Virus record (IMG/VR): IMGVR_UViG_3300025012_000084
Coordinates: 1,617-65,616 of that record
DNA: 64,000 nt
Strand: one strand, 5' to 3'
From: a virus
Taxonomy: Duplodnaviria; Caudoviricetes
Positions 3,762 through 57,708 of the stretch are shown piece after piece. Position 1 is the first letter of the stretch. Every line of letters begins with the position of its first letter. The notes beneath the pieces are model-generated. The model saw nothing but the letters and a program-made list of their open reading frames with translations. It searched no databases and was not told where the DNA came from. The position numbers and the translations under genes were made by a program.

Positions 3762-4439
3762 ATGACAACCAGCGGCACAACGGCGTTTGTTCCAGACGTA
3801 GCTGAGATAATCGAGGAAGCCTTCGAGCGCGTAAGGCCGTCCGGATCGTCTACTGGGTACGACGTCAGAACCGCTAGGCGGTCGATAAATCTGCTCATGC
3901 TGGAGTGGGCTAATCGAGGCGTTAATTTGTGGACGATAGATTCCGGTACGGTAGCACTCGTCTCCGGTACATCCACGTACAGTCTTCCTGCCGACACCAT
4001 AGATTTACTCGACGTGGTTATCCGGACGACCGCAGCCGGAGTTCAGAACGACATGGTTGTAGGCAGAATTTCGCTGAATGAGTACACGTCCATACCCTCA
4101 AAGACGGCCACAGGCCGTCCGGTGCAGTTCATGGTGAACAGGCTGTCCGCAGCCCCGACGATCACGCTATGGCCGACACCTGACAGCGCCACGACGTACT
4201 CGCTGGTTTACTGGAGAATGCGGCGGATTCAAGACACAGGCGGAGATGGCGGCCTCACCATGGATGTTCCTGCAAGACTTATTCCGGCGCTCATATCGGG
4301 ACTCGCGTATTATTTGGGTATGAAATACGCACCTGGAAGCCTACAAGTTCTGAAGGCTATGTACGACGAGCAGTTCCAGATGGCTGTCGAAGAGGATAGA
4401 GACAGAGCTTCGTTCAGGCTGGTTCCGAGGCCGCTGTAA
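3762..4439 (+). CDS. Head-tail adaptor / tail tubular A-like protein
   Basis: IIEEAFER...ARRSINL...WANRGVNLWT, LWPTPD motifs. Confidence 0.7.
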   Translation: MTTSGTTAFVPDVAEIIEEAFERVRPSGSSTGYDVRTARRSINLLMLEWANRGVNLWTIDSGTVALVSGTSTYSLPADTIDLLDVVIRTTAAGVQNDMVVGRISLNEYTSIPSKTATGRPVQFMVNRLSAAPTITLWPTPDSATTYSLVYWRMRRIQDTGGDGGLTMDVPARLIPALISGLAYYLGMKYAPGSLQVLKAMYDEQFQMAVEEDRDRASFRLVPRPL

Positions 4440-5834: not shown

Positions 5835-8800
5835 ATGCCAAGCAGTTACTCAGCACTTTTACGCACGGAGCTTGTTGCTGTCGGTGAGCAGTCCGGTACA
5901 TGGGGCACGACCAACAACAAGAACATCGGCACGTTGCTCGAAGCCGCGATATCTGGGATCGCCACGGTTGTTATTCCAGACGCTGACTACACGCTTACCG
6001 CGCTGAATGGCGCTGTGGACGAAGCGCGCTCGATGGGCCTGAACCTTACAGGTGCGCTCACTGGTGCGAAGAACGTAATATGTCCGACGAGTGCGAAGCT
6101 GTACGTTGTGAAGAATGCTACGACCGGAGGGTTTGCCGTGACAGTCAAAACGGCTGCCGGCACTGGCGTTGCGGTTCTCAGCGGCGCGTTCGCTGTTCTT
6201 GAGTGCGACGGTACGAACGTGGTGCAAGTGACGCTGCCTACTGCGTTCACATCGGCTACTTTGGCCGCTGCCGTCACCGACGAAACAGGAACCGGGTCGC
6301 TTGTGTTTGGCACATCCCCTACACTGACTACGCCGACACTTAATTCTCCTGTACTGACTACACCCGCACTCGGCACACCGGCCTCAGGTACGCTGACAAG
6401 CTGTACGGGTTTGCCTGTGGCCACAGGGGTTTCAGGTCTGGGCGCCGGTACAGCGACGTTTCTGGCCACCCCATCCTCTGCGAATCTGGCCGCTGCCGTC
6501 ACCGACGAGACTGGAACCGGAGCGCTTGTGTTCGCGAGCGGGCCGACAATCAGCTCGCCTGTTTTAGTTACACCCGCACTCGGCACACCGGCCTCCGGAA
6601 ACCTGACTAGCTGCACAGGACTTCCTGTGACTACCGGAGTGTCCGGTCTGGGTGCCGGGGCAGCTACGTTTCTGGCCACACCCTCGTCCGCGAATCTGGC
6701 TGCTGCTGTCACCGACGAGACGGGAACTGGAGCACTTGTGTTCGCAGATTCTCCTGCCCTAGCAGGCTTGCCGACCGCGCCTACTGCGGTCGTTGGCACA
6801 GCGACGACTCAGATAGCCACTACCGCGCATGTGGCAGCCACGGCGTTTACGGCAGCGCTGCCCGGACAAGCCGGAAACGCTGGAAAATTTGTCACGACTG
6901 ACGGTGTGAACGCGAGCTGGTCAGCCAATGTGGCTACTGGCGGAGGTACTGCTACCGGAACCAACACCGGAGACAACGCGGTGAACACGCTCTACAGCGG
7001 ATTGGTGAGCAATGTGACGCATACCGGAGATGCAACTGGTGCGACAGGCCTGACCGTGGTGGCAATAAACAGCACAAACATGGCCGCGTTGGCTACTGGG
7101 ATTCTGAAGAACACCACGACTACCGGGGTTCCAAGCATTGCTGTCGCAGGAACGGACTACGTTGCACCATCTGGAGCACTCGGAACACCGGCCTCAGGTA
7201 CGCTGGCGAACTGCTCGGGTCTGCCTGCTACCGGAGTAACGGGCACAGCTGCAACCCTCGGTGCGGCAAACACCTTCACAGCCGCCCAGAACTTCGCCCG
7301 AGCCACCGTGGCCTCGCACGCCACGACCGGCGACATCTGGGGCGCTGCCGGAAATCAAATCGACTGGACGGGCACTGCGACCACAACGGCATTCCCGGAC
7401 GCGCCACAAGCGGGTGCGGAACGTGTGCTGATATGCGCGGGAGCGTGCTCGTTCACGGCTGGTGCAAACATGCTGATTGACGGCGTTGCTTCGGCTTCGA
7501 CTGTGACCTGCGCTGCTAACGACCAAGTGATTGTGCGCGCGGTATCCACTACGCAGTTCAAGTTGTCGCGGGTTAAGTATGATGGGACGGCGCAGGTGAC
7601 TTCACCATCGGACGGCGGTGCGACAATCACTTCCAGCGCGGTCGATATTACGCTCACTTCAGCCAGCACTCGCGTTCAAGTCGTCACAATGACAGCGAGC
7701 GGGAAGGCAGTAACCCTGCCTGACGCCACGACACTTAATGAGGGAGGGGTTCTGTTTGCTGTAAAGAATGTCGGCTCGCACACCTTTGCCGTCAGAAATT
7801 CTGCTGGAACGCTGCTTGCGGTAGTTGCAGGATCACAACTTGCTGCATTTTATCTAAGTGATAACTCTGCTGCTGCTGGTGTTTGGGCTGTAGGAGATGA
7901 AACGCTCGGAGGCGCTATGGATTTTCTACTAGCGCAGGCTGAAGTAACAATCGTTACGGCGACAAACTATTACGCTGACTCTATCGGCATATCTGAAACG
8001 CAAGCAATAGGGGTATGGTATGAATCGCCTAATATTAAAGCATGCACATTGAATGTCAGCGGCACCACGCTTACGGCGGGGGCTATTCTCACAGTGGTCG
8101 CAGAAGCCCCAGATGGCCACTTATCTATAACCGCATTATCAGCAACGCAAGCTGTTGCCGCGTGGCGTAATTCCGGAACTAACATGCGAGCATGCACTTT
8201 GAATGTCAGCGGGACAACACTGACAGCGGGTGCGATTCTCTCAGTGAATGCGACAAACACTGCTTGGGTTTCCGTCACGTCAGTATCTGCAACGCAAGCA
8301 GTTGTTGCGTATTTAGACAATTCCGCCTCAGGAGTAATCCGAGCATGCACATTGAATGTCAGCGGCACCACGCTTACGGCGGGGGCTATTCTCGAAGTTT
8401 TAGCGGCAGCGGCGACTGCTATTTCTGTTGATACATTATCGGCCACGCAGGTAATTTTGTGCTTTAATTATACGGCTTCTACAAGCGTGTATGGATGCAC
8501 ATTGAATGTCAGCGGGACAACACTGACAGCGGGTGCGTTCGCCACCTTTAATACAGGAACAGCAACCTTGGTTTCTGTAGTGGCTTTATCAGAAACAGCA
8601 GCTATTGTGGCATATCGTCCGGCATCTACATTCGTGGAGGTCAAGAGTATGTCTATCAGTGGAACCACCGTTACTCCCGGAACCGGAGTCGCGGTTAATG
8701 CACTTAATTGTGGCTCGATAAGTACATCAAAGATGTCGCCAACGAAAGCACTAGTTGGTTATTCTGGCCCAGCTTTTCCGTTGCACGTCAGCGCACTTCG

Positions 8801-46553: not shown

Positions 46554-46655
46554 TTTTATGCTCCTTTTGTTGTGTAAACTAATAGCTGGAATAGGTGTAA
46601 AACTGCCTTCGTTACAGGATATACCCCTAAATCGGTGCCTAAGATACGTTAGAGG

Positions 46656-46889
46656 TCAACACACTGGGCACCCGCATAAAAATCCATGAGGGCAATATGC
46701 TGCCGCTTCCGCCTCGCACATTTCGTCTACGCACGCAGGGTTGTCGCACCACAAGTATTTATTCCCGCAAGGGCAAATGGACGGGTCTTTGACCTCTAAC
46801 CCTCCGCTCAAGTTCGCTCCGGCTTCGCCTGCGCGGGACTGCGCGCCAGCGGGGTTCCTTTCAATTTCATTCGTTGCTGCCATGTTCAT
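46656..46889 (-). CDS. Cassette gene: Cys-rich protein
   Basis: AAGGAG RBS and ATG inside the attC1 loop; 8 Cys. Confidence 0.65.
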   Translation of the reverse strand: MNMAATNEIERNPAGAQSRAGEAGANLSGGLEVKDPSICPCGNKYLWCDNPACVDEMCEAEAAAYCPHGFLCGCPVC

Positions 46890-46940
46890 ATCTCCTTCAA
46901 AGTTTTGTGAAGCGCGCAGTCCCTTAGCTACACGTTAGAA
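46794..46940 (+). repeat. attC-like site 1 (147 bp)
   Basis: CTCTAAC CCTCC GCTCAAG ... 12-bp stem GGGACTGCGCGC/GCGCGCAGTCCC ... CTTAGC TACAC GTTAGAA. Confidence 0.85.
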
Positions 46941-47263
46941 CCCATCATGAAGCGTCCAGCCTCACGGTTCCATACCGCATCAATCGCAAGCCTGTTTAGG
47001 TCTTCACTGGCACGCGGATCGTCAGCTTCACAACTCACCCATCCGCTTCCCGGTATTAACTTGGCATACCACCCGAATTCTCGGCATTCCATTTCCCCCG
47101 GATATATACATGTCCATTTTATTGAAGGCAGCGCGTGTTCTTCGCAGTCGCACGATATGCGCTGCTCTCCACAATTTGCGCACCGTTCAACATCGCATCC
47201 GGGTTGGTGTTGCTCTCTGGGCGGCACTCCGCAATCCGGGCAATTTCGCAGTTCGTTTCGCAT
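46928..47263 (-). CDS. Cassette gene: Zn-binding protein
   Basis: CPDCGV...H..GCDVERC..CG.Q.ISCDC; ends SNV* within attC1. Confidence 0.7.
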   Translation of the reverse strand: MRNELRNCPDCGVPPREQHQPGCDVERCANCGEQRISCDCEEHALPSIKWTCIYPGEMECREFGWYAKLIPGSGWVSCEADDPRASEDLNRLAIDAVWNREAGRFMMGSNV

Positions 47264-47283
47264 CGCGTTTCTCCGTAGTTGTG

Positions 47284-47346
47284 TTCTAACTTTCCGCTCA
47301 AGCGGGGCTGCGCGCTTTTGCGCAGTCCCTTAGCTACACGTTGGAC
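47284..47346 (+). repeat. attC-like site 2 (63 bp)
   Basis: TTCTAAC TTTCC GCTCAAG ... CTTAGC TACAC GTTGGAC. Confidence 0.9.
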
Positions 47347-47534
47347 ACTTTTCTATCCTTGCAAGAGTTCGACCAATGGCAATTCCCTTTTTGCTCCCAA
47401 GCGCAGTATGGAGGGTAATCGCATTTGCCCTTATTCTCGTAACGCTCCCAAAATGGTTTGCTGGTGTCCAACCCGCCGTTCAACTCGAACTCCGCGCCAG
47501 CGTGGTCGTTTACAGGTTTCATTGTGTCTGCCAT
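47334..47534 (-). CDS. Cassette gene: small Cys-containing protein
   Basis: AAGGA RBS and ATG in the attC3 loop; ends SNV* within attC2. Confidence 0.6.
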   Translation of the reverse strand: MADTMKPVNDHAGAEFELNGGLDTSKPFWERYENKGKCDYPPYCAWEQKGNCHWSNSCKDRKVSNV

Positions 47535-47591
47535 GATTATTTCCTTGTTGAAGTGTTTAGTTGCGCGGAGCCGGTTAACTCTACGTTGGAC
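47466..47591 (+). repeat. attC-like site 3 (126 bp)
   Basis: GTCCAAC CCGCC GTTCAAC ... CTCCGCGC/GCGCGGAG ... GTTAAC TCTAC GTTGGAC. Confidence 0.88.
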
Positions 47592-47595
47592 ACCT

Positions 47596-47853
47596 TCATC
47601 CAAAAGTTGCGGATATTTCTTCGCACTGTGTTTTGATGTCCGTCAAAAATGCCCGTGCTCCGTCAAAAGTCATGCTGCATAATCCACCTCCTGCTTTTAT
47701 GCCAAGCTCTTCTATCACAGCCAACAACATTTCGGTTTCGCGCACATGCTGCGCAGAGAGTGATAGGTATTTGTTTTTGTACTCGCCGTCGGTGTCCAAC
47801 CCGGCGTTCGAGCGCACGGGCAACGGCGCGGCTTCTTTCACAGTTTCATTCAT
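47596..47853 (-). CDS. Cassette gene: hypothetical protein
   Basis: AGGAG RBS and ATG in the attC4 loop. Confidence 0.65.
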   Translation of the reverse strand: MNETVKEAAPLPVRSNAGLDTDGEYKNKYLSLSAQHVRETEMLLAVIEELGIKAGGGLCSMTFDGARAFLTDIKTQCEEISATFG

Positions 47854-47898
47854 GGTTTCTCCTCGCGCCGTTCCCCGGCGCTCAACTCTACGTTAGGC
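47794..47898 (+). repeat. attC-like site 4 (105 bp)
   Basis: GTCCAAC CCGGC GTTCGAG ... AACGGCGCG/CGCGCCGTT ... CTCAAC TCTAC GTTAGGC. Confidence 0.9.
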
Positions 47899-48074
47899 GT
47901 CTTGTCCCGTCCGAGCCAAGTGCACCATGCAGCTATTGCGGCACCCCCCCACCACGGCAGATCAATCCAGTGGTCGCGCACATGCTGGATGTATCCTTCC
48001 AGCCCGTACCAATTTTGGATCATCATCACCACACCAAGGGCGGTCGCTGCCCCCATTGCAAATTGCCTATTCAT
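47850..48074 (-). CDS. Cassette gene: 2-TM membrane protein
   Basis: AAGGA RBS; two hydrophobic segments; tail PNVELS.. runs through attC4. Confidence 0.6.
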   Translation of the reverse strand: MNRQFAMGAATALGVVMMIQNWYGLEGYIQHVRDHWIDLPWWGGAAIAAWCTWLGRDKTPNVELSAGERREEKP

Positions 48075-48103
48075 CGACGCTTCCTTTCTCCGAATCACGA
48101 AGT

Positions 48104-48129
48104 GCGCGCCCCTCAACTACACGTTGGAC
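48104..48129 (+). repeat. attC-like right half (left half lost)
   Basis: GCGCGCCC CTCAAC TACAC GTTGGAC. Confidence 0.7.
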
Positions 48130-48869
48130 ACCACTTCGTTCCATACTGTCGGCTGTCCGGTAACGCTCTCCAAAAAGCACCCATCCAATTTTTCTGGTCG
48201 AACGTACTTTGCAAGGAAGTCCACAACCCAATGTCGCTCGCCACCTTTGCCGGGGTCAATGAGTTCGTTCCGCTCTACGCGCCACATCGCTCCCTCAATC
48301 GGGTCAATCGCGCCGTGATTGCCGTACTCGCCAAGCCGCTTCATTGCCTCTTCAATGCTCAACGCATCCCCGATATGGATAGTGTGCGGTAAAACAAAAC
48401 GCCCGCTTATTCTGGATTGCAGTTCTTCGTGGGTTGCGCGCTTCATTCCTCTCATCAGGTCAAAGGCCACAAACGGCTCATGCGGCAGCTTGTAGCGCGT
48501 ACCGTGAGCCTGCAACAGCCATTCACCCGCCAGCCGTTCGCCGTCGGCCAAAACCTCTGCAAACCGCGCTTCGTTTGCGGAAACCCACTCCCCGAATTTA
48601 TGGTGTTGCATGTATGGCGAGGTGTGCGCCAAGTACCCTGCACGTGTCAGCGCCAGTATTTCTCCGTTGATCTTCGCCACCCCAACATTCGACCCGTCCA
48701 GTTTTTCTTGGACGATGATGCGGTCGTGTTTGTCGCGTACCTTTTCATTGCAAATGCGCTCTTGCCCTTCGTGGCAGCTATGATCCCCCGGCCCCAGTCT
48801 CGACCCAGGAAGGTGTGCAATGCTCCCGTAATTTTTACCACCCAAAGGTTTTGCGTTCTTCTTTTCCAT
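48117..48869 (-). CDS. Cassette gene: RNA ligase (Rnl2-like nucleotidyltransferase)
   Basis: Motif I QEKLDGSN, GEW, FVAFD, EGAMWR, AKYV; AGGAG RBS. Confidence 0.85.
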   Translation of the reverse strand: MEKKNAKPLGGKNYGSIAHLPGSRLGPGDHSCHEGQERICNEKVRDKHDRIIVQEKLDGSNVGVAKINGEILALTRAGYLAHTSPYMQHHKFGEWVSANEARFAEVLADGERLAGEWLLQAHGTRYKLPHEPFVAFDLMRGMKRATHEELQSRISGRFVLPHTIHIGDALSIEEAMKRLGEYGNHGAIDPIEGAMWRVERNELIDPGKGGERHWVVDFLAKYVRPEKLDGCFLESVTGQPTVWNEVVSNV

Positions 48870-48886
48870 TTTCTCGGCTCTCCTAG

Positions 48887-49276
48887 TTAAAATCTGTCCA
48901 ACCCTACGTTCGAGAGCGACGGCGCAAAAGCGCGGCTTCTTTCACACTTTCCGTTCGAGCGCGCCGCCCACCACGCCTCAAATTCTTCGTATGTTTTATT
49001 TTTAACGCAGTACCCGTGCATGTGCCATGCACGGCTTTTTTCTTTTTCCGGCACCGCATCACTAACCGCTCTCCATATCGCATTACATTCAGGGTCAACG
49101 TGCTTTTGTTCGTCGGTCATCGAATCCCAACCATAAGGCTTTCCGATCGGGAGGTTTTCCGGCCATCTGAAACAATTTAGCTCGCAATACCAAGCCGCCA
49201 CTGTTTCGACAGGAAAATCGGCTAACCTAACATTCAACGCGGCTTCCTTTACGTTCTCTAGTTTCTGTTCGTTCAT
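48887..49276 (-). CDS. Cassette gene: hypothetical protein
   Basis: AAGGAG RBS in attC loop; both termini attC-derived. Confidence 0.6.
   Translation of the reverse strand: MNEQKLENVKEAALNVRLADFPVETVAAWYCELNCFRWPENLPIGKPYGWDSMTDEQKHVDPECNAIWRAVSDAVPEKEKSRAWHMHGYCVKNKTYEEFEAWWAARSNGKCERSRAFAPSLSNVGLDRF
48896..48995 (+). repeat. attC-like site, left arm intact, right arm degenerate
   Basis: GTCCAAC CCTAC GTTCGAG ...; possible remnant CTCAAA TTCTTC GTATG. Confidence 0.6.
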
Positions 49277-49327
49277 TTCTTCGTTACTCCTTCCGAGTCA
49301 GCGCAGCCGGCTAACTCTACGTTAGAC
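49220..49327 (+). repeat. attC-like site (108 bp, diverged L boxes)
   Basis: GGCTAAC CTAAC ATTCAAC GCGGCT ... AGCCG GCTAAC TCTAC GTTAGAC. Confidence 0.65.
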
Positions 49328-49539
49328 ACCTCTTGCCACGGGTTCAGTTTCTCGCCTCGATAAACATGACCCTGCACATTTTCCATGCTGTAATTTTTTT
49401 CGTTTGCGTCGCTTACGCGCATCAGCGCAAAAAAATATGGCTGCGGGTACGGATTAGGAAAAGTGTTCGCCATTTCCCACCCATCGTTCACCATGATGTT
49501 GATAATTCGAGTATCGCCTTCTACGAGTTCATATCTCAT
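49273..49539 (-). CDS. Cassette gene: hypothetical protein
   Basis: GGAG RBS; tail SNVELAG.. through attC; ATGA overlap. Confidence 0.6.
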   Translation of the reverse strand: MRYELVEGDTRIINIMVNDGWEMANTFPNPYPQPYFFALMRVSDANEKNYSMENVQGHVYRGEKLNPWQEVSNVELAGCADSEGVTKK

Positions 49540-49562
49540 GTATATCTCCGTTACTACGAGTT

Positions 49563-49618
49563 GTCCAACCCTACGCCCAACCGGACTGGCCTACGGCCCG
49601 GTTATTTTCACGTTATGC
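49563..49618 (+). repeat. attC-like site (56 bp)
   Basis: GTCCAAC CCTAC GCCCAACCGG .. GGCC TAC GGCC CGGTTA .. CAC GTTATGC. Confidence 0.75.
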
Positions 49619-49970
49619 GCCTAGTACAGCGCGTATTAAAGTAGACCGCTCCGTCAGCGTTCTCCCGGTAGATAAAACAACCCGCAGATGCACAGCTTGG
49701 TATGTGGCGGCACCAATAAAAAACCATTTGGCTCTCATGTCCATCGTTGTCTTCGATGAGCATGAAATGACCGGGCTTGATTTCCTTGAGCCGGGTGCCT
49801 TCGACTTGCTTTGCCAGCTTCGCGGCCTTTGGGTTGCAGCTGACCTTCTTTGTCTTGCAATTCACTGGATCGCCGGAAATCGTCAGGGCGCCAACAAGAA
49901 CAACTTCAGCCAATTCCGTAGTGATTTCAACGGGGCCGATGCCGGTGATTTTGATGGTTGCTTGGGTCAT
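49608..49970 (-). CDS. Cassette gene: hypothetical protein
   Basis: AAGGAG RBS; stop in the neighbouring attC spacer. Confidence 0.6.
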   Translation of the reverse strand: MTQATIKITGIGPVEITTELAEVVLVGALTISGDPVNCKTKKVSCNPKAAKLAKQVEGTRLKEIKPGHFMLIEDNDGHESQMVFYWCRHIPSCASAGCFIYRENADGAVYFNTRCTRRIT

Positions 49971-49998
49971 TTGAATCTCCTTTGTTGTCTGCTTGGGA

Positions 49999-50028
49999 GC
50001 GCCGCGCCCCTTAATTCAAACGTCGGGC
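49999..50028 (+). repeat. attC-like right half with variant core GTCGGGC
   Basis: GCGCCGCGCCC CTTAAT TCAAAC GTCGGGC. Confidence 0.55.
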
Positions 50029-50046
50029 GTCATCCTTGTGAACGCG

Positions 50047-50199
50047 TTAGCCACCATTAAGCACGGCAATCCCGTATACAATCACCCAAGCGCCCGCAAC
50101 AGTTAAAGCGGCTGGGACGCTCCATGCCAAGCCAGCGGCGGCGGAAATCATTAGCGCACCAACAGATAGCATAAGCCAGCCTTTTACGATTTGTTTCAT
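50047..50199 (-). CDS. Cassette gene: small 2-TM membrane protein
   Basis: MKQIVKGWLMLSVGALM...; TAA stop overlaps the core site. Confidence 0.55.
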   Translation of the reverse strand: MKQIVKGWLMLSVGALMISAAAGLAWSVPAALTVAGAWVIVYGIAVLNGG

Positions 50200-50240
50200 C
50201 ACGAAAATCCCTTTAAAAATACCGCTCTTCTTGGGTAGGC

Positions 50241-50265
50241 GGCTAACCCTACGCTCAACCTCGTT
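50241..50265 (+). repeat. attC-like left half (array end)
   Basis: GGCTAAC CCTAC GCTCAAC; 9/10 complementary to GTTAGCCACC at 50046. Confidence 0.65.
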
Positions 50266-50494
50266 TAATGAGAATTCCATCCCGCTTTATTAGTCCGGCG
50301 CGTTCAAAAAATACCATGCACTTACCGAACTCATCCTCGCTGCGCCAGTCTATTCCAAGCAGCTTTAACCCGTATCCGAGCTGCAATCCGTCAATGTTGC
50401 TGATATGCGTCCATGTTGGCGGCAATATCGCTTTTATATTGTCTGCGTTGGCTTCCATCCATTGCCGGTTTCCAAGTGTGTCTTGTAGTCCCAT
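50255..50494 (-). CDS. Hypothetical protein
   Basis: GGAG RBS before MGLQD. Confidence 0.55.
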   Translation of the reverse strand: MGLQDTLGNRQWMEANADNIKAILPPTWTHISNIDGLQLGYGLKLLGIDWRSEDEFGKCMVFFERAGLIKRDGILIKRG

Positions 50495-53249: not shown

Positions 53250-55312
53250 TACACCACCTCCGTTTCGTTGCCCTGCGGAGCAGGCGTCTCGGACGGCACA
53301 TACTGCGTGAACTTCTTTGGCTCGACGCCATCATCTAGTTCGTTGTCTACCACTTCAACCGACTTGTACCAGAAGTATGCGTCATGTTCGTCCTTGAGCA
53401 ACTTACCGCCCTCGAACGCGGCATCCACACTATCTTCGTGGATGTAAAGGCTACCGCCGTCAGGATCTTCGCCGACCGCAACCATGTCATCCATATGATA
53501 CGCATTCTCACTCATGCAGCAACACTGCGCATCATCCACGTCGATCCACTCACCACGATACTTGTCATAGATAATACTTTCGATGTGGCTGAGGTGGCTA
53601 TCCAGGACGTGATAGCCCAGGCACTCTACATACACAACTGCATCCATCCGGACATAGTCGTATTTGAAGGTTCCTTGGCGATTGCCGTCCACCACCGCCT
53701 TCGCCAAGAGCTCGTAAGCGCAGAGGACGCAGTACGAAACACTGTGGAACTCAGAATACACGCGATCGTTGCTGCTATGCAACGCGTCTCCGCAGTTGTC
53801 GCAGTACCCGTATTCAGGCTCTTCTTCTTCTTCTTCTTCTTCTTCTTCTTCTTCTTCTTCTTCTTCTTCTTCTTCTTCTTTGCCCTCCGTCACCCCGCCG
53901 TTTTCATACCCGTCGTAGGTTCGCTCACCGTCGTCCTCGGTCAGCATCCAATGTTCTTTGTCGTGCTCAGCGTAGAACAAGTCACCGCCGCCGGAGGCAG
54001 TGCCTGCGTCGACGTAAGCCATGATGTGCCCCCTGCCATAATCATTATCTATCTTCAATATGCGGCAGCCAGCCAGCGCACCTACCTCCGGATAAATATC
54101 CATCAGCTCCAAGAGCGGTAGCAGCTTCACCTCATCGCCGTAGATACGCGAGCACTTCTTTGTGGCCTTGTTGACCAGTGTGCGCGCAGTGATACGCTCC
54201 CCGTCTTCAATCCAGGCCACTTTTATGTCTCCAGCCGCGTAGATAGCTGCCGGATGCACTTGCCCTACGTATTTCATGTTGGCCATGCACGACTCCCTCG
54301 GCCCGTGATTTATGCATCGAATAAAATCCTCCTCAGTTTCAGACAGGTGCACCTCTGTTGTCAGGCCATAGTCATATTCGAACGCAGCCACCTCCTTTTT
54401 AACCTGCTCGTTGTCCATCTCAGGATGGTACTTGGCCAAGTACCGGCCATACTTCATTCGAGTAAAGATGTCCCGCTTCTGATTCTTTTCGTCCGCTGCG
54501 AATGCCACCATCGGCGCTTCTGGCGTACCGGACAGGTGCAGGTATCGGTCTTGGTTTTGTGGGGTGGCTCCACGTGGCAGAGATATTATCTCGAAATATC
54601 CGAAGCGCGCGCGCAAGTCGTCACGATAGAGATGGTACGTCTCTTCGGAAAGTGGCGCGCCAACAGAGCAGGCTGCCGCATCAACAAAACCTAACCGTAC
54701 CCCAGAAATCAGGGACTTCACTTTGTCCAGGGTATCCAACTTCTCGGCCAGGGGGACACGTATTTCTTCGTCAGTGAGGTATTGAACCGGAGGCGGCAGT
54801 GTAGTCACGAGCTCCAGCGAAGCCGGGGGCCACCCAAATACTTCGAAGTATACGCCTTCACGGCACACTCTAGATACCGCATAATCTCTGCCGTTGTTCA
54901 CATACTCATCCATCGAGTCCGCCCAGTCATTATCCCACACCGCCGGATCTGGTTCCGTTATCTTGCGCACTACTCGCACTCTGTCGCCCACTTGAAATAC
55001 GTTCACACCCTCCGGAATTTCGACTTCATCACCCAGCTTGCTGGCGACGTAGCAGCGCATGGCTGCGGTAAGTGGCGTCTGGCCGTAGCTATGGAATACT
55101 CCGACACAGGCTTCGTGTAGGGCCATCGCATCAGGCGCAGTCTCCCCAAGATACACGACATTTATTCCTTCCCGCTCAATAATCGGGCCGCCTTGCGCCC
55201 AGTCGGATGACGGACAAAAGTCCAGCGCACCAATCATGTCCAACGGAATCCCAACATGAGCCACTGCCCAATCAAGTGCCGCGCCACTAAGGTCTGATGT
55301 CTTGACTATCAT
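53249..55312 (-). CDS. Multidomain protein: NinX/DUF2591-like N-terminus fused to a large acidic domain with poly-Glu
   Basis: LSGAALDWAVA...PSSDWAQGGPIIERE...AAMRCYVASKLG; CDNC..CVLC. Confidence 0.7.
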   Translation of the reverse strand: MIVKTSDLSGAALDWAVAHVGIPLDMIGALDFCPSSDWAQGGPIIEREGINVVYLGETAPDAMALHEACVGVFHSYGQTPLTAAMRCYVASKLGDEVEIPEGVNVFQVGDRVRVVRKITEPDPAVWDNDWADSMDEYVNNGRDYAVSRVCREGVYFEVFGWPPASLELVTTLPPPVQYLTDEEIRVPLAEKLDTLDKVKSLISGVRLGFVDAAACSVGAPLSEETYHLYRDDLRARFGYFEIISLPRGATPQNQDRYLHLSGTPEAPMVAFAADEKNQKRDIFTRMKYGRYLAKYHPEMDNEQVKKEVAAFEYDYGLTTEVHLSETEEDFIRCINHGPRESCMANMKYVGQVHPAAIYAAGDIKVAWIEDGERITARTLVNKATKKCSRIYGDEVKLLPLLELMDIYPEVGALAGCRILKIDNDYGRGHIMAYVDAGTASGGGDLFYAEHDKEHWMLTEDDGERTYDGYENGGVTEGKEEEEEEEEEEEEEEEEEEEEPEYGYCDNCGDALHSSNDRVYSEFHSVSYCVLCAYELLAKAVVDGNRQGTFKYDYVRMDAVVYVECLGYHVLDSHLSHIESIIYDKYRGEWIDVDDAQCCCMSENAYHMDDMVAVGEDPDGGSLYIHEDSVDAAFEGGKLLKDEHDAYFWYKSVEVVDNELDDGVEPKKFTQYVPSETPAPQGNETEVV
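53822..53878 (-). repeat. (GAA)19 microsatellite encoding poly-Glu
   Basis: Directly visible. Confidence 0.95.
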
Positions 55313-57679: not shown

Positions 57680-57708
57680 ATTGTCTCATACTGAAGGCAT
57701 TATGTCAA
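57680..57708 (-). promoter_or_regulatory. Early sigma70-like promoter
   Basis: TTGACA-17 bp-GACAAT with TGn. Confidence 0.7.

Follow-up and report, generated by a model that had tools for sequence, protein, structure and literature searches.

The stretch of DNA analysed here, referred to as the window, comprises 64,000 nucleotides (nt) and corresponds to bases 1617-65616 of the 65,616-nt IMG/VR record IMGVR_UViG_3300025012_000084, which represents an uncultured groundwater phage and was rated 100% complete by CheckV. Between window positions 46612 and 50259 it has the layout of an integron without the integrase, with an attI-like site, seven attC sites recognized by a covariance model (six of them clearly full), several half sites and ten genes on the minus strand. 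The original prediction, made by a model from the sequence alone, had described about ten attC sites at this locus. Six clearly full sites were recovered (S1-S4, S7 and S8, between 56 and 147 nt long), whereas S6 is a marginal case, only halves are present at S5, S9 and S10, and the stretch to the left of position 46648 is attI-like rather than attC. With at least two attC sites and no integron integrase nearby, the locus corresponds to a CALIN, an integrase-less cluster of attC sites. Among the features of a complete integron, an attI at the start of the array is present by homology, intI is missing, and the cassette genes do not have the sense orientation that goes with reading from Pc.

The attC-type sites and their crossover footprint

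In the description of Cury et al. (2016), attC sites are defined by an inverse core R'' (RYYYAAC) and a core R' (GTTRRRY) with conserved AAC and GTT triplets. The window sites contain both cores with these triplets, as well as L boxes, an extrahelical base and spacers of about 5 nt. The complete order R''-5 nt-L''-stem/loop-L'-5 nt-R' was found in S1-S4, S7 and S8 and in three sites (a, b and c) of a related phage locus, L004. L'' carries an extra C in S1-S4 and in the three L004 sites, and the spacers are 5 nt long; pairing is imperfect in S7 and S8. When the whole 64-kb window was searched, half-site motifs were confined to 46.6-50.3 kb and to the plus strand, and the right halves form a direct-repeat family of seven members.

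All sites lie on the plus strand. S2 (47284-47346, 63 nt) is a canonical short site with the extra C in L'', and S8 (49563-49618) is the shortest, with 56 nt. S1 (46794-46940, 147 nt), S3 (47466-47591, 126 nt), S4 (47794-47898, 105 nt) and S7 (49220-49327, 108 nt) are longer, and their loops hold translation signals described below. S5 (48103-48129), a member of repeat family D1, consists of a right half only (stem-L'-spacer-R'), and no R''/L'' partner was seen for it. S6 (48896-48959) consists of a left half, 82% identical to that of S4 (repeat family D8), and a remnant. S9 (49998-50052), read directly from the sequence, is a degenerate right half whose R' GTTAGCC at 50046 pairs at 9 of 10 positions with the R'' of S10. 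The latter (50238-50259) is a left half only, R''-CCTAC-L'', and forms the right end of the array; its 16-mer at 50243-50258 exactly matches attC left halves in dozens of the bacterial and viral loci that were fetched. In the window as in L004, intact sites are found towards attI and a left half site closes the opposite end, which fits entry at attI followed by ageing.

Bottom-strand folds of nine sites were compared with those of shuffled sequences. The z-scores were -5.07 for S4 (none of 200 shuffles folded as well) and -7.37 for L004-a; three further sites, including S1 (-2.04), lay between -1.8 and -2.3, and four were above -1, among them S7 (weak, +0.88) and S8 (+0.25). The minimum-energy fold is attC-like in S1, S3, S4 and L004-a.

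The covariance model, named R1, was trained on just five short sites, S2 and S8 of the window and three of L004. It recovered the five window sites that had not been used for training, with E-values of 5e-6 (S4), 3e-4 (S3), 4e-4 (S1), 0.009 (S6) and 0.04 (S7). Its seven matches in the window are all on the plus strand and all within 46794-49618, and there was no other at E<=1 on either strand, even with the filters off. A search of 44-54 kb against Rfam gave two chance-level hits and no attC hit; the reverse direction was therefore tested, with the phage-derived R1 against known integrons. In the phage P1 isolate MH445380, whose class 1 integron contains two aadA attC sites, R1 found both of them (E 3e-6 and 9e-5); in each case the site shares the strand of its gene and follows the stop codon immediately. 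These sites share with those of the window the arrangement R''-5 nt-GTTCAAGC...CTTAAC-5/6 nt-R'; unlike them, they are found 3' of a resistance gene in sense orientation, beside intI1, and the phage array carries no resistance gene. No matches were obtained in the Vibrio anguillarum phage integron (also with the filters off) or in phage TJE1, misses that are uninformative on these sites because the model is narrow.

A degenerate attC pattern derived from the phage sites matched at least 120 bacterial contigs. Among the 120 matches listed, 24 are titled Gallionella, Gallionellaceae, Gallionellales, Sideroxydans or Ferrigenium, and most others are further Betaproteobacteria or methanotrophs. In 79 of these 120 loci R1 gave 201 matches arranged as same-strand arrays, and in 24 an IntI homologue was present inside the 8 kb fetched. 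An IntI above the curated cut-off was detected in four of five whole genomes tested, as compared to none of 14 control genomes. An exact 18-nt right-half motif had a single match in IMG/VR, in a coding region of a 310-kb contig, and was judged a chance hit.

The strongest point for sites beyond chance is the footprint of crossover. Seven pairs of complementary core sites had been predicted, and all were found where they had been placed, with as many matches as announced or more. Counted from the G of GTT, the exact runs were 12 (46648/46800), 8 (46934/47290), 9 (47340/47472), 10 (47585/47800), 8 (48123/48902), 3 (49321/49569) and 7 (50046/50247). The pair 49321/49569 matches at 7 of 8 positions (permitting transitions gives a run of 8), and the last pair at 9 of 10. 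The extended complementarity between R'' and R' thus spans the gene, while L'', stem and L' pair inside the site. The claim that this complementarity is best within the cassette, and not within the attC, held in three of the five comparable window sites (12 vs 6, 8 vs 3 and 10 vs 3), but one site gave a tie and another 9 vs 10, because GTTGGACAC recurs. In a permutation test on the window alone, 18 of 5040 arrangements reached the observed sum of runs. The four cassettes of L004 showed runs of 6, 16, 3 and 11 (up to 16/16), and with both loci taken together none of 200,000 random pairings attained the observed within-cassette complementarity. A true Vibrio integron showed the same footprint, with 11/11 at its first cassette. 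Taken at the level of sequence, these observations support the identification of the window sites as genuine integron-type attC sites carrying a crossover footprint.

The left edge of the array

The array opens with a putative docking site at 46612-46654 (plus strand), which ends in the first core GTTAGAG, with the crossover G at 46648, and occurs once in the window. This non-coding stretch is shared with another related phage, L005, and the two sequences diverge directly after GTTAG. The left edge was searched in 301 genomes assigned to the same family as a Sideroxydans genome (Gallionellaceae) and matched about 20 of them at E<0.03, the best at 9e-7. Twelve bacterial loci were fetched. They have in common a 36-nt motif with an internal hairpin, ending in AC followed by GTTRG, and all diverge thereafter; 28 of the 36 positions before GTT in the window match their consensus. 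In L005 the hairpin is kept through compensatory changes.

In three of the 12 loci, a full IntI about 72% identical to a Sideroxydans IntI starts on the opposite strand, some 70 nt away from the motif and an estimated 105 nt or so from G^TT. One more locus has a frameshifted IntI, three have N-terminal fragments only, and the other five yielded no IntI. The bacterial attI-motif loci have the classical intI-attI-cassette arrangement. The left edge of the phage array is thus supported as a homologue of the attI beside intI in Gallionellaceae integrons, with a predicted docking role; a host-type attI at the start of the array is what a phage relying on the host IntI would need.

Some further observations were made on this motif. 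The three bacterial loci L182, L188 and L189 (around 1640-1750) retain just 24 to 34 N-terminal IntI residues and look like decayed chromosomal integrons. A Sideroxydans contig, L135 (identical to L181; 890-960 and 1494-1536), opens with the attI motif, and its first cassette, which contains a sense open reading frame (ORF) and has an R'/R'' footprint of 12/12, begins with GTTAGAGGT like that of the window. A 13-nt left-edge motif in L004 and in L001, another IMG/VR relative, lies inside a coding region and is unrelated.

Cassette genes, related phages and genomic surroundings

All ten genes of the array are antisense to attC, their coding strand being the attC bottom strand; in the control integrons it is the top strand of attC that is coding. 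The loops of S1, S3, S4 and S7 hold a ribosome-binding site and the ATG of g1, g3, g4 and g7, respectively, and neighbouring attC sites provide stop codons or, for g5/g4 and g8/g7, ATGA overlaps inside the site. The Cys-rich 77-residue product of g1 (46656-46889), which matched neither Pfam nor PHROG, takes its first ~33 residues from S1, and this leader is homologous to an ORF of the viral locus L153. The gene g2 (46928-47263) also encodes a Cys-rich protein, of 111 residues, and scored -0.12 per codon as compared to -0.37 for the rival ORF on the plus strand. The 66-residue product of g3 (47334-47534) ends in VSNV-stop inside the R' and spacer of S2, and that of g6 ends in the same manner within R' and spacer. 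The genes g4 (47596-47853, 85 residues) and g5 (47850-48074, 74 residues, membrane-like) overlap by ATGA, g5 reading through the R'-L' part of S4. The largest gene, g6 (48117-48869), encodes a 250-residue protein of the RNA ligase family (PF09414, E 2.8e-18; phrog_38169, E 2.3e-51; 5754 homologues at E<=1e-10). The 129-residue product of g7 (48887-49276) reads through S6, g8 (49273-49539) encodes 88 residues, g9 (49608-49970, 120 residues) has its stop codon in the R' of S8, and g10 (50047-50280) encodes a membrane-like protein of 77 residues or fewer. By phage codon usage, eight of the ten minus-strand ORFs scored positive and all nine plus-strand ORFs negative.

The same reversed layout was seen in L004. 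The attC pattern matched 30 IMG/VR contigs, in which R1 gave 100 matches. When the longest ORF of each interval was taken, the viral loci gave 38 antisense and 29 sense calls and the bacterial loci 9 and 93, but this call is noisy on short viral cassettes and mislabels the second cassette of the window, and the orientation was therefore redone with codon usage. Of the 67 intervals from 20 viral loci, 53 were then antisense, 5 sense and 9 undecided, whereas the 103 intervals from 31 bacterial loci were divided into 17 antisense, 72 sense and 14 undecided (Fisher p = 4e-19, the intervals of one array being treated as independent although they are not). The antisense orientation of all genes together with the translation signals in the attC sites suggests that the cassettes form a phage-adapted pool and are not loot from a bacterial array.

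Common to the window, L004 and L005 are polA (69-74% identical at the amino-acid level), an HNH-like neighbour and the genes downstream; no cassette protein is shared between them. The sequence of L001 ends 2 kb before reaching the array and showed no sites. In a tblastn search of 22 window and seven L004 proteins against all fetched loci, only attC-encoded peptides and the HNH-like neighbour were matched. The S1 site has a counterpart in L153, an unrelated viral locus, where a 141-nt attC (4094-4234) is 85% identical to it, including the ribosome-binding site, ATG and ~30-residue leader in the loop, and is placed between different flanks and before a different gene body. A comparison of cassette content and order between relatives had been proposed as a check. 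The cassette content does differ, and the breakpoint with L005 falls exactly after the first GTTAG, but the whole interval from polA to a 712-residue gene varies, beyond the array too.

Contigs of two groundwater samples carry the same array. In these samples, S3- and S4-type attC sites also occur in other contexts at higher depth, and the homology stops at AAC and at GTT. In runs X1 and X3, an S3-type attC of other contigs has eight letters in place of the 75-nt coding loop (window 47492-47568); a translation-start module thus seems to have been inserted into short attC sites to give the long phage ones, or else the change went the other way. A joint from 46937 to 47470 was also noted in the contigs, but its shorter side has only 23 letters and may stem from another genome, and nothing was drawn from it.

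Among the other viral arrays, L150 and L152 (records G009 and G010) belong to complete phage genomes of 42.3 and 38.1 kb with direct terminal repeats. They contain six and five R1 sites, respectively, their genes are mostly antisense, and they have no PF00589 match. L149, a 17.3-kb IMG/VR contig estimated to be 44% complete, encodes a full-length IntI (5836-6825, 61% identical to a Sideroxydans IntI) that adjoins an attC array, and may be bacterial or prophage DNA.

The window encodes a terminase, a family A DNA polymerase, an SNF2 helicase, a DUF927 primase-helicase and tail proteins, and the phage is a virulent-type tailed phage. The minus strand carries the genes from about 32 to 58 kb, and the cassette genes are co-oriented with the leftward early genes on both sides of the array. 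The predicted lack of a tyrosine recombinase was borne out for the entire 65,616-nt record, in which PF00589, TIGR02249, PF00239 and PF01797 (tyrosine, integron, serine and Y1 recombinases) had no match. No IntI remnant was found beside the attI-like site, tblastn giving chance-level matches only, and a blastn comparison of the array region with 50,697 phage records gave no match. Between 44 and 58 kb neither sigma-70-like sites (10 seen, 10.9 expected) nor terminator-like sites (15 seen, 13.8 expected) were in excess. The top sigma-70-like site of this region, TTGACA-17-GACAAT with TG (10/12), lies at 57680-57708 on the minus strand, upstream of the leftward early gene block. The minus-strand 712-residue gene, for which a viral relative was looked for and none found, has a P22 NinX domain and contains a run of TTC triplets (plus strand, 53822-53876) that would encode a glutamate run.

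Known systems and interpretation of the array

The original prediction had not recognized the array as a described phage system. This part did not stand, as CALINs in virulent phages, with sites recombined by IntI1 in assays, are already reported by Qi et al. 2023 (PMC9892861). These authors list 17 CALINs in 10,705 genomes, each with at least two sites and the one of TJE1 with three; IntI1 recombined five of six phage attC sites into attI1, exchange with bacterial integrons was proposed, and attI is mentioned for a Shewanella prophage. Like the window, these phages have attC sites and cassettes without intI. The window differs from them in its six or seven full sites, accompanied by halves, in its attI of host type and in the recurrence of its layout in relatives. 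Neither the literature searched nor the passages of Qi et al. 2023 consulted here described reversed cassettes, translation starting within attC loops or a virulent phage with an attI. What goes beyond that work, as far as it was consulted, is therefore the antisense position of the genes relative to attC, the ribosome-binding sites and start codons in attC loops, and the host-type attI kept in two related phages. IntI can also place cassettes at secondary genomic sites outside integrons, according to a preprint (bioRxiv 10.1101/2022.09.11.507474), but unlike the insertions outlined there, the entry point in the phage is homologous to attI and is not an arbitrary GTT.

The phage array also resembles the sedentary chromosomal integrons of Betaproteobacteria, in loci labelled Gallionella, Sideroxydans, Nitrosomonadales and Thiobacillus, which share with the phage the attC type, the attI motif ending in G^TT and the footprint at the cassette boundaries. 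They differ from it by an intI beside attI, by genes that are mostly sense (72 vs 17) and by attC sites mostly of about 63 nt, whereas the phage has no intI, all its genes are antisense and four of its attC sites are long with coding loops. From this sequence kinship, the host is probably an iron-oxidising betaproteobacterium of the Gallionellaceae or near them.

We consider it likely, with a probability of roughly 0.7, that 46612-50259 is an integron-type cassette platform of a virulent-type tailed phage, into and out of which a host IntI acting in trans would insert and excise cassettes. The recourse to a host integrase is well motivated and is what we infer from the layout. On the plus strand, the attI-like site is followed by cassettes bounded at G^TT, each ending in its own attC. 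IntI would be made in the infected cell, and the replicating phage DNA would present folded bottom strands; circular cassettes would then be taken up at the attI-like site, and recombination between attC sites would release them. Leftward early transcription would read the genes, the attC loops serving as translation start modules.

Several observations weigh against such a platform. Folding by itself is weak evidence, with z below -5 in just two of nine bottom strands and above -1 in four. S5, S9 and S10 are half sites, S6 is marginal, and several sites have decayed; the attI-like hairpin of the window retains just three of five pairs, and the attI motif pattern was found in no other IMG/VR contig. 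R1 is narrow and misses the Vibrio-type sites of MK672802 as well as those of phage TJE1, and the orientation calls are based on ORF length and codon usage in intervals that, within one array, are not independent. Since the interval between polA and the 712-residue gene varies outside the array too, differing content alone is no proof of IntI-driven exchange. The cassette bodies of the window occur in no other fetched attC-flanked locus, and in none of five other viral loci is there an R1 site close to the RNA ligase homologue. An excision joint at G^TT removing a cassette was not seen in the contigs of the two samples, which are not raw reads.

With its decayed sites and degraded hairpin, the platform may be a fossil, in part or as a whole. 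An ancestor would have taken the attI end of a host integron once, the array would now be inert and decaying, and its genes would be kept or lost by ordinary phage recombination. The identical array in two samples and the lack of common cassette bodies elsewhere also speak for such an origin. However, a captured bacterial array should be mostly sense, as in 72 of the 89 decided bacterial intervals, and here all genes are antisense; one of them encodes a phage-type RNA ligase, and no intI remnant lies beside the attI-like site. L005 keeps this site with a different first cassette starting exactly after GTTAG, and the four cassettes of L004 bear footprints, of up to 16/16, that look fresh. We therefore regard a wholly inert array as unlikely, while it is the most serious of the alternatives.

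The preferred reading, in which a host IntI acts on the sites, would also fail if a phage-encoded recombinase of an unrecognized family took its place. Most of the region's small ORFs could not be assigned to a family, PF00589 is absent from eight of the ten other viral records with arrays, including two complete genomes with terminal repeats, and an IntI that is always borrowed would mean full dependence on integron-bearing hosts. As four recombinase families were sought and none found, and as a foreign enzyme would not need sites and an attI-like edge of the host integron's own type, such a recombinase seems very improbable.

The hairpins might instead be chiefly RNA or regulatory elements of the early operon, with roles in processing, stability or translation control, the units being shuffled by homologous recombination between repeats. 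Such shuffling has been proposed for the promoter-stem-loop cassettes of T4-type phages, mobile regulatory cassettes in which each repeat carries an early promoter; the window repeats differ from these in having no excess of sigma-70-like sites. Despite the mRNA-like nature of the bottom strand, the translation starts in four loops with the two ATGA overlaps, and the leader-bearing attC conserved at 85% identity in L153, we give this explanation hardly any credit, since repeat-based homologous exchange yields no R-box complementarity spanning the gene with L boxes pairing within the site, both the sites and the left edge have bacterial homologues, attC and attI respectively, next to intI, and promoter-like and terminator-like sites are not enriched. 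A role as RNA could exist in addition to the role in recombination.

If host integrases are indeed used by phages to swap early accessory genes, integrons would be a means of two-way exchange between bacteria and viruses, beyond a gene bank of bacteria. The match of the attI-like site to bacterial loci is a testable host prediction for an uncultured phage, and the cassette boundaries delimit small phage genes, one of them coding for an RNA ligase, that are probably under fast selection and are candidates for host take-over or counter-defence. The reversed layout and the translation signals in the attC loops bear on how cassettes arise. It is conceivable, although we hold it only tentatively and at somewhat less than even odds, that phages of integron-bearing bacteria maintain their own mirror-image cassette economy, with a copy of the host attI as dock, a borrowed integrase and bottom-strand genes with start signals in the loops. 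If so, the reversed orientation would insulate the two pools from each other, since a bacterial cassette in the phage, or a phage cassette in a host integron, would run against the local direction of transcription and thus stay silent.

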